A stretch of DNA of 64,000 nucleotides from Escherichia coli (lineage in GTDB: Bacteria; Pseudomonadota; Gammaproteobacteria; Enterobacterales; Enterobacteriaceae), in assembly GCF_041248615.1 (NCBI RefSeq), contig NZ_CP158426.1. The stretch is one strand, 5' to 3'. The first letter of the stretch is position 1; every line of letters begins with the position of its first letter. A program made the position numbers. This document shows, piece after piece, positions 45,001-48,000 of the stretch.

Positions 45001-48000
45001 TTTCAGACGGGCCATGCACCCGCAAATGATCATCGCGTCATCGTCACAACATTGCGGGCGAGATTTTACTTTTGAAGGAATTAATCCCTTAAAACCGGCG
45101 GCAATGGACGACCAGGTCACATCTTCATGATTATTAGCCGCCCACGCACCCCAACGCTCAAGAACCATCTGAATATCACGCATCAACTTACTCCACAAAA
45201 ATCAGACCAGAACGCCAATTACAAGCAAAAATCAACAAAACAGTATTAGTTGATTGTTATCTCTGACTTCATACTCCTGTTCCTGTCAGGGTTTTGGCGT
45301 AATTCTTCAGTATTCGGTAATCGGTCAAAACAGAACCGAGGAAACGATATAAGCGCAGACGCCCCCAGCGGTGGCGAAGAAGTTCTGCCATATTAAACTC
45401 AAACATCATTCATTCCCCATTTCGGTGATGGTCAGTTCCAGCCTCCCACCTTTGGTAACAGGCATCTTCACAACGCGGTAATCAACGACCTGAGCATCAT
45501 CCAGCCAGAAACCTGCTTTAGTGAGTGCGTCAAAAGCGGCTTTTTGCAGATTATCCAGGTCACGGCGACGGCGATCCGGCATGTGGCACTCAATGCGGAT
45601 TTTCACAGGCATAGCCAGGCCGATATCCAGCATTGCGTTTTTAATGATTCGGGCGACGTTATCGCGGTATGCCTGCCCCTCTGCGCTGACGTGCGTGCGC
45701 CCGCGATTATGGCGGTAATAGCGATTATTGCTCGGAGGCCAGGGTAATGTGATGCTGTAGGTATTCACGCCTTAATAACCCCCTCTTTCAGCCACATAAC
45801 CTGTGTTCTCGCCATACCTTCCAGCGCGCATTCTTTTGCATATGCAGCATCGACTTGCTTGGCATGCCCTTTACCGGCAATCTTCTGTATGCGCTAAACC
45901 TAGATAGAATCCACTCTGTGCACATTGAAGCCCGCTCTATGCTTTCTTTCAGGTATTGAAGGGATTGAGATGGGCTAAGCATTATTGGCCTCCTGCATCA
46001 GGAGAAAGACAATCATGGCGGCGCGGAGAGGTCTGGTATCAAATATTGGGCTTACGCCTTTTGCATCCACACACCATTCAGTTAACTGGTCTAAGATAGA
46101 AATCCTGTATTTCTCAATAATCGGCCATGAAGCGCTCGGATCATTGCAGTAGTCAGGCAAATGATTTAATGGCTCAAAAGTTGTATCAGCATTTCCGTAA
46201 TACCATTTGTTGGTGTTATTCCCTGATGTTTCCGGTTTACTTGCCCAAAGGCCTTTAAAAATTATGTCTCCTACCATTCTGTTAATTTCAAAATCACTTA
46301 ACTGTGAATAATCCATTGTCATTTCCTCGCACGATATCTTAGCCACCGGATATCCCACAGGTGGGCTGTGTAATTGAAGGTTTTTACGTCAGATTCTTTT
46401 GGGATTAGCTTGCGTTTATTTCTGGAGCGTTTCGTTGGAAGGTATTTGCAGTTTTCGCAGATTATGTCGGTGATGCTTCGTCGCTGTCGTCTCATGCAGC
46501 CCTCCTGACGCCCTGCCCGATCGCCATCAATGCCGCTTTGGATACGGTAGTAAACATCCGTCGAGGACTGATGAACGGTCGCCAAATCAGCAGCATGGAG
46601 CCTTTGCTGTTTCCCTTCTTCTCCAGCCCTGTCGATGGTTCGATAAAATTAATCCGTCCATCAGTGATAATACGAACTTCGTCAACACTCTCCAGAGCCT
46701 TGCTGAACCATCCGACAGACATATCCTCTGGCACAAGCATCACTACCGTCTGTCGCTGTTGTATACACTGCTCAGCGGCTTTTTCCACCCACGGCCTGAT
46801 ATTGCTGTACGGTGGGTTATTCCAGATTGCACCGTGGCTTACCCACTCAGAATTGAGCGCGTCGTCGTCCTCAGTTAGCCAGTGAGCGCACAGAGCATTT
46901 TTGTCGCTCGCTGCCGAATCCAGCCAGAATCCAAACTCAATATCCAGTGCATCAAAAAGCCAAAGCGGCGTTTGCCAGCAGTCCTTGTCGTGTGCTGGCG
47001 TATTTGATTTGATAGTCATGCAGCCCGATCTCCCCATCGCGCTTTCCATTCGAGAGCCAGTCGCGCTTCGTCTGACCACTTAACGCCACGCTCTGTACCG
47101 AATGCCTGTATAAGCTCTAATAGCTCCGCAAATTCGCTTACACGCATCCTGCTGGTTGACTGGCCTATTACCACAAAGCCATTCCCGGCAAGGTTAGGAA
47201 CAACATCCTGCTGCTTTAATGCTGCGGTAAACACACACTTCCAGCTTTCTGCATCCAGCCAGCGACCATGCCATTCAACCTGACGAGAGACGTCACCTAA
47301 GCAGGCCCATAGCTTCCTGTTTTGGTCTAAGCTGCGGTTGCGTTCCTGAATGGTTACTACGATTGGTTTGGTTGGGTCTGGAAGGATTTGCTGTACTGCG
47401 TGAATAGCGTTTTGCTGATGTGCCGGAGATCGAATTTCAAAGGTTAGTTTTTTCATGACTTCCCTCTCCCCCAAATAAAAAGGCCTGCGATTACCTGCAG
47501 GCCTGTTATTAGCTCAGTGATGTAGATGGTCATCTTTTAACTCCATATACCGCCAATATCCGTTTCATCGTGGCACTCTGGCGACACTCCTTAAAAATCA
47601 GGTTCGTGCTCATCTTTCCTTCCCGTTCTTCCTTGGTAGCAAACCGGTAATACACCGTTCGCCAGACCTTACCTTCGATAACCAGAAGACCTGCCCGTGC
47701 CATTTTAGCCGCGGCCTGATTTATGCTGGTTACTGTTGCGCCTGTTAGCGCGGCAACGTCCGGCGCACAGAAGCTATTATGCGTCCCCAGGTAATGAATA
47801 ATTGCCTCTTTGCCCGTCATACACTTGCTCCTTTCAGTCCTAACTTAGCTTTAATTTCTGCGATCTTCGCCAGCGCCTGAACACGATTTAGAGGTCTGCC
47901 GCCCATGACAGGAAGTTGTTTTACTGGTTCAGGTATCGTCTCACCACGGTTAATTCGCGCTGTCATACAGGTCAGTTCATCGGCAGCCTTGCGTCGTAAT

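Follow-up and report, generated by a model that had tools for sequence, protein, structure and literature searches.

An orphan N6-adenine methyltransferase gene of the PF05869 family in the nin region of a lambda-like Escherichia coli prophage

The window analysed here is a stretch of 64,000 nucleotides of the E. coli contig NZ_CP158426.1 (assembly GCF_041248615.1), which carries a lambda-like prophage. In the nin region of this prophage lies the gene for a 175-amino-acid phage N6-adenine DNA methyltransferase, and this protein is very probably an active orphan N6-adenine methyltransferase that depends on S-adenosylmethionine (SAM, also AdoMet) and targets GATC. It would be made after induction or infection, and not in the repressed lysogen, and would top up the GATC methylation of the phage DNA. 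The open reading frame (ORF), family, motifs, predicted fold, orphan context, and operon position were computed here; the GATC specificity and the lytic expression are taken from the literature, and the biological benefit is inferred.

Family membership and catalytic domain

The ORF proposed in the initial annotation is real. It fills 46492–47019 of the minus strand exactly and without interruption, from an ATG at 47019 to a TGA at 46494–46492, and family profiles match it over their full length. Specifically, the match to Pfam PF05869 ("DNA N-6-adenine-methyltransferase (Dam)"; E = 3.7e-65) scored 219.1 bits against a threshold of 28.1 and covered model positions 1–167 of 169, and the match to the NCBIfam equivalog TIGR01712 ("phage N-6-adenine-methyltransferase") scored 265.6 bits against a cutoff of 97.05 and covered positions 1–165 of 165. 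Because both matches are full length, the ORF is not a chance one. The product also matched PHROG 111 ("DNA methyltransferase"; E = 8.3e-88), and its best PADLOC models were those designated oMTase (orphan methyltransferase). The protein is thus a member of PF05869/TIGR01712 on all the sequence and fold criteria tested, and its first description as an N6-adenine methyltransferase with an NPPY motif is borne out by these matches, by the motif itself at residues 68–71, and by the predicted fold. An alternative GTG start at 47079, which would give a product of 195 amino acids and a 64-nucleotide overlap with ninB, was dropped because the homologues and the RefSeq annotation begin at the ATG and none of the homologues aligned to the added residues.

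In an alignment of 27 PF05869 members, with identities to the prophage protein ranging from 99% down to 32%, 14 columns were invariant (S5, T7, T17, P18, D34, L55, W59, N68, P69, P70, Y71, L95, R122, and F125), and all 14 residues are present in the prophage protein. They include the whole of the catalytic motif IV and the aspartate of a motif I-like sequence that follows strand β1 (residues 31–34); from comparison with the LEPACAHG motif of M.TaqI, this aspartate, D34, is presumed to be the acidic residue that binds AdoMet. The same alignment served to build an AlphaFold2 model, which had a mean predicted local distance difference test (pLDDT) score of 91.2 and a predicted template modelling (pTM) score of 0.88, and was least confident at residues 121–140. 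Its core is an alternation of strands and helices in a Rossmann-like arrangement, which is the class I SAM-dependent methyltransferase fold. Only 29 residues lie between D34 and the NPPY strand, a target-recognition domain is absent from the predicted fold, and the predicted protein is approximately a catalytic domain alone, with no separate DNA-recognition domain. In this model, the segment at residues 121–140 or so, which starts with the GRINF sequence, is a candidate DNA-contact element. As judged from the alignment and the model, the catalytic domain is complete for the PF05869 family and is that of an N6-adenine methyltransferase; the concern that it might be incomplete, which had been named as grounds for rejecting the annotation, was checked and is answered by the 14 of 14 invariant residues and the confident, complete fold.

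When the predicted model was used in a fold search, the cap-adenosine N6-methyltransferase PCIF1/CAPAM scored highest (11.2), followed by M.TaqI (10.0), M.BseCI (9.5), MmeI (9.3), and CamA (9.0), with the Type I HsdM subunits at 8–9, E. coli Dam at 8.3, DpnM at 7.8, and T4 Dam at 7.7. A sequence search of the PDB with the methyltransferase returned only chance-level matches (SdiA, E = 0.31), and no solved relative was detectable by sequence.

The same data bear on whether the gene is an inactive relic, that is, a conserved ORF of a domesticated prophage in which methylation has been lost. A nin-region neighbour has decayed (the DUF1364 fragment described below), and the SAM-binding half of the protein is unusually short, with about 30 residues from β1 to the NPPY strand. 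However, this short architecture is common to the whole PF05869 family, active members included, and the ORF is full length and has kept every invariant residue. Furthermore, the protein is one residue away from M.EcoVT2Dam, an enzyme reported to be active in the passage quoted in the next section; its DNA is 95–100% conserved in more than 1,500 genomes, with the ORF annotated as intact; and the prophage retains its int, xis, replication, lysis, and structural genes. A relic is therefore extremely unlikely.

Target site and role in the lytic cycle

The target of the enzyme was deduced from a near-identical protein. The product is identical at 174 of 175 positions (99.4%) to that of orf32 of phage VT2-Sakai (NP_050531.1), and the lone change, D51A, falls in a variable column of the alignment. 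This orf32 is the only methyltransferase annotated in the VT2-Sakai record, in which orf4, the only large candidate left without annotation, is a DUF551 protein. A passage of PMC6602927 describes M.EcoVT2Dam as an "orphan MTase" of the E. coli prophage VT2-Sa that is "known to target 5'-GATC-3'" and cites Radlinska & Bujnicki 2001, and it is through this citation that the enzyme, which differs from the present one by one residue, can be traced as cloned and assigned to GATC in 2001. On the basis of this 99.4% identity, we infer that the prophage enzyme also targets GATC. More distant members are consistent with this target: M.EcoT1Dam is described as GATC-modifying, and GATC is also methylated by the cloned form of M.Btr190III, a prophage enzyme that is a 35% relative of M.EcoT1Dam (PMC4996451). 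The cloned M.Btr190III also showed marked off-target activity and was seemingly inactive in its native lysogen (PMC4996451).

Such off-target activity is relevant to a second interpretation, in which the enzyme has relaxed specificity and, at lytic-cycle levels, methylates GATC together with many other adenine sites, making it a broad anti-restriction device against several restriction–modification systems. The predicted fold, with no separate target-recognition domain, would suit such an enzyme, and prophage and plasmid methyltransferases are often called promiscuous (PMC4659465). On the other hand, the near-identical M.EcoVT2Dam is reported as GATC-specific in the passage already quoted (PMC6602927), M.Btr190III, which shares only about one-third of its residues with M.EcoT1Dam, showed its off-target activity when over-expressed, and the well-known non-specific phage enzymes Hia5 and M.EcoGI/GII probably come from other families. 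We consider relaxed specificity quite unlikely. It is also unlikely, if conceivable, that the enzyme, working as a dimer or by means of its flexible segment (residues 121–140), reads DNA in a way unseen in solved methyltransferases, and that it might methylate relaxed sites beyond GATC at lytic-cycle levels, which would protect the phage against restriction more widely than a simple Dam mimic could.

In terms of gene order, the minus strand reads cII-O-P-ren-(terminator-like hairpin)-ninB-methyltransferase-ninE-ninX-(DUF1364 fragment)-rusA-ylcG-Q. The methyltransferase gene therefore has ren/tR2 on one side and Q on the other and lies on the strand transcribed from pR, as a lambdoid nin-region delayed-early gene, and its original placement in the nin region was right. 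No restriction enzyme and no match to a PADLOC defence model was found among the flanking ren, NinB, NinE, NinX, DUF1364 fragment, RusA, YlcG, and Q; the enzyme is not part of a restriction–modification pair, and the view of it as an orphan with no adjacent restriction enzyme is upheld. The gene shares an ATGA overlap with each of its immediate neighbours (Table 1), suggesting translational coupling to both ninB and ninE. Judging from the gene order, the GC-rich hairpin in the gap between ren and ninB may be the equivalent of lambda tR2. In lambda, genes at the nin position are transcribed from pR once the repressor is lost, and their full expression needs N read-through of tR2. Because a tR2-like terminator precedes ninB here, N antitermination would likewise be needed for expression of the nin genes.

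The dam gene of phage Φ24B, whose product is 100% identical to VT2-Sakai NP_050531, was one of four screened genes with a quantitative PCR (qPCR) profile "linked to the lytic cycle" (PMC3342100). Given the position of the prophage gene behind a tR2-like terminator in the pR operon and the lytic pattern of the Φ24B gene, the enzyme is likely to act on phage DNA during lytic growth. The initial annotation had suggested that the enzyme may also change the methylation of the host and its gene expression in the lysogenic state, and such a lysogen-phase epigenetic regulator would require the prophage copy to be expressed in the lysogen. The Φ24B product was indeed found by an antibody screen of lysogen cultures, and the authors speculated that it supplements host Dam for the maintenance of lysogeny (PMC3342100); in addition, our consensus scan found weak sigma-70-like hexamers inside the methyltransferase gene. 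However, the qPCR of the same authors linked the gene to the lytic cycle, so that the signal in the screen would come from spontaneously induced cells (PMC3342100), and promoter-like matches in the region were not above those in shuffled sequence (7 found versus 9.6 expected). The gene also lies behind a terminator-like site in a repressed operon. When O111 strains that differ in two additional copies of M.EcoVT2Dam were compared, the level of GATC methylation was 99.9% in either case, and no added motif was assignable to these copies (PMC6602927). Related prophage methyltransferases have been reported as silent in their hosts (PMC4996451, PMC4659465), and M.Btr190III appears silent in its native context. 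Taking together the position in the pR operon behind the tR2-like site, the lytic pattern of Φ24B, the roughly 99.9% methylation of GATC by the host, and the silence of M.Btr190III, the proposed effect on the lysogen is poorly supported, and a lysogen-phase regulator is very unlikely.

We therefore return to GATC methylation of phage DNA during lytic growth, for which the following course can be proposed. In the repressed lysogen, the methyltransferase would not be made. After induction or infection, it would be produced once N antitermination passes the tR2-like terminator in the delayed-early pR operon, and during lytic replication it would complete GATC methylation on fast-replicating phage DNA left under-methylated by host Dam. 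In packaged lambda DNA, about half of the GATC sites are left unmethylated by host Dam (PMC3299994). The progeny DNA would then enter the next cell fully methylated, where it may resist enzymes that cut unmethylated GATC-containing sites and may be taken as self by Dam-linked host systems, and the enzyme might also be of use for growth in hosts with little or no Dam. Protection of the phage DNA from restriction is accordingly a plausible benefit.

Several points weigh against this interpretation. In Dam-positive E. coli, the enzyme is redundant in specificity, GATC methylation renders DNA sensitive to DpnI-type enzymes, and the protective benefit is our interpretation. The GATC assignment is second-hand, coming from the quoted passage, and was made for a near-identical enzyme rather than for this exact allele; the predicted protein has no recognisable target-recognition domain, which leaves its reading of GATC without an explanation from the computed data. 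The terminator and promoter logic was derived from a consensus scan and the gene order of lambda. Finally, GATC is somewhat depleted in the prophage, with 128 sites observed versus 210 expected under a Markov model for 18000–62400 (ratio 0.61), so that methylation would not be the only strategy of the phage. Two 2-kb bins (18001–20000 and 22001–24000) contained zero GATC. Because GGCC is similarly low in the prophage (0.62) and CTAG is lower (0.34), no strong conclusion is drawn from this depletion.

Gene surroundings, prophage, and distribution

Table 1. Coordinates of the methyltransferase gene, its sequence motifs, and adjacent elements in the window
Feature	Position	Strand	Basis and remarks
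Coding sequence, 175-aa phage N6-adenine DNA methyltransferase	46492..47019	-	ORF, PF05869/TIGR01712, PHROG 111, RefSeq; = WP_000153286.1
N-terminal WQTP, residues 15–18	46966..46977	-	T17 and P18 invariant across the family
Motif I-like LDSAA, residues 33–37, after strand β1	46909..46923	-	D34 invariant in the alignment
Catalytic motif IV NPPY, residues 68–71	46807..46818	-	Invariant in 27/27 aligned family members
GRINF, residues 121–125	46645..46659	-	R122 and F125 invariant; start of the lower-confidence segment (~121–140)
Shine-Dalgarno-like GGGGAG	47030..47035	-	10 nt 5' of the methyltransferase ATG; last G within the GATC site
ATGA overlap, ninB stop/methyltransferase start	47016..47019	-	Sequence
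ATGA overlap, methyltransferase stop/ninE start	46492..46495	-	Sequence
ninB (recombination mediator Orf/NinB), upstream gene, same operon	47016..47474	-	PF05772, E = 1.3e-54
ninE, downstream gene, 58-aa product	46319..46495	-	PF05322, E = 1.8e-41
Intrinsic-terminator-like GC-rich hairpin and T run, ren/ninB gap, lambda tR2 position	47481..47504	-	Consensus scan

Two small observations were made around the gene. A GATC site (47027–47030) lies between the Shine-Dalgarno-like sequence and the ATG, within the last part of ninB; no significance is known for this site, which may have arisen by chance. In the gap between ninX and rusA, a nin gene has decayed (45769–45982, minus strand), and at the near-identical loci of E. 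coli Nissle and NRZ14408, RefSeq marks only a C-terminal DUF1364 fragment; a 64-amino-acid ORF at 45788–45982 had no Pfam match.

The prophage is integrated at icd, and its best whole-region match was E. coli NRZ14408, with 99.88% identity over 37 kb. Its integrase gene is intact (61193–62335), and it has xis, recT, kil, ral, sieB, N, cI, cro, cII, O, P, ren, the nin genes, Q, a porin gene, lysis genes, and lambda-type head and tail genes. A 217-bp stretch at 10609–10825 shares 94.9% identity with 62394–62610, where the integrase gene adjoins icd at the right end, and from this similarity the two are probably copies of the attachment site, formed by duplication of the 3' end of icd. If so, the prophage would extend from approximately 10.7 to 62.5 kb, and the low-GC genes at 11–18 kb would be cargo inside it.

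Other genes of the prophage are also of interest. An antirestriction protein Ral gene (53738–53938, plus strand; PF11058, E = 1.7e-48) lies in the pL operon, and the prophage, which carries Ral besides the methyltransferase, would therefore have at least two means of evading restriction. A full-length OmpC/NmpC/Lc-type porin gene (43469–44611, plus strand; PF00267, E = 2e-151) stands between Q (44800–45198, minus strand) and the lysis genes; because its strand is opposite to that of the phage late operon, it is regarded as a moron at the site occupied by stx in the Shiga toxin (Stx) phages. Directly 3' of the cI-like LexA-family repressor gene (50170–50871), at the position of lambda rexAB, is a two-gene cassette (50911–51468 and 51465–52217, both on the plus strand). 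Its second protein (DUF1828) matched the PADLOC candidate defence model PDC-M24B (E = 4.7e-10), and its first protein had a weak match to PDC-M24A (E = 4.8e-4), with DUF6978 below threshold. The two genes may form an anti-phage system that is encoded by the prophage and expressed together with the repressor.

The 528-bp methyltransferase gene is 100% identical in DNA sequence in E. coli Nissle 1917, ATCC 11775, NU14, and others. At a DNA identity of at least 95%, it was present in 1,565 of 5,426 complete E. coli genomes (approximately 29%), in up to five copies per genome, and these copies are always annotated as "phage N-6-adenine-methyltransferase" between "recombination protein NinB" and "NinE family protein". 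A tblastn search found 1,906 phage records with a match; identity was 99% for Stx1- and Stx2-converting phages and 30–43% for T1-like, HP1-like, Vibrio, Klebsiella, Lactococcus, and Staphylococcus phages. A protein database search found 273 relatives across the Enterobacterales, all with PF05869. The gene is thus already known, being named in RefSeq and present in VT2-Sakai, Φ24B, and HK97-type phages, and the prophage has an ordinary, intact copy. As a discovery it has little importance, given that about 29% of complete E. coli genomes, as well as hundreds of phage records, already list it by name. Its residual value lies in three points: that "Dam" in the annotation denotes the same target site but not the same family as host Dam; how so small a PF05869 protein, from a family without a solved structure, recognises GATC; and what the phage gains by duplicating the methylation specificity of its own host. 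At high expression, enzymes of the family may also have off-target activity.

Comparison with known methyltransferases

The term "Dam-like" in the initial annotation describes only part of what was found. It is apt for the GATC target reported for the 99.4% identical M.EcoVT2Dam; it does not fit the family, which is PF05869 and not PF02086, or the predicted fold, which resembles M.TaqI and PCIF1 more closely than it does E. coli Dam (EcoDam). EcoDam, T4 Dam, and DpnM are alpha-class PF02086 enzymes with a DPPY motif and an inserted target-recognition domain, whereas the prophage protein has NPPY, lacks such a domain, and is about 100 residues shorter; it had no PF02086 match in the Pfam search and showed none of the three features of PF02086 membership (profile match, DPPY, and a target-recognition domain inserted to separate the SAM-binding half from the catalytic half). 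The M.TaqI-type gamma-class enzymes and the catalytic domain of PCIF1/CAPAM are nearer in fold than EcoDam, although their identity to the prophage protein is only 14–16%, and they carry large extra DNA- or RNA-recognition domains that the prophage protein lacks.

Hia5/M.HindVII and M.EcoGI/GII are likewise prophage-borne orphan N6-methyladenine (m6A) enzymes that stay silent in the lysogen and whose presumed function is protection of phage DNA, but they probably belong to other families and they lack sequence specificity. The closest structural homologues of Hia5 are EcoDam, DpnM, and T4Dam, and it has DPPY and FxGxG motifs (PMC3299994). A kinship of the present family with Hia5, Hin1523, and Nma1821 was rejected for this reason, as these are EcoDam/DpnM/T4Dam-like proteins with DPPY and FxGxG (PMC3299994), and a kinship with the EcoDam-like M.EcoGII was rejected likewise. 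Judging from these descriptions, and from the match of the prophage protein to PF05869 only, homology to Hia5 or M.EcoGII is unlikely. The enzymes of the ST131 methylome and the Phytophthora DAMT enzymes were set aside as members of other families.

Within PF05869, M.EcoT1Dam and the other Dam proteins of T1-like phages (Drexlerviridae), the HP1-type Dam of Pasteurellaceae phages, and M.Btr190III share the invariant WxTP, LDxAA, NPPY, and GRxxF residues with the prophage protein. They differ in that their identity to it is only 32–35% and they come from virulent phages or other operon contexts, and the T1-like proteins have an N-terminal extension of about 50 amino acids and an insertion before GRxxF. 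The closest known system is M.EcoVT2Dam (VT2-Sakai orf32), which occurs as the same protein in Φ24B, Min27, 933W-type, and HK97-type phages and agrees with the enzyme described here in its length, its Pfam match, and the placing of its gene between ninB and ninE. Apart from D51A, the difference lies in the carrier: the present prophage is of the lambda-like siphovirus type, is integrated at icd, and lacks stx, whereas VT2-Sakai is a short-tailed Stx phage.

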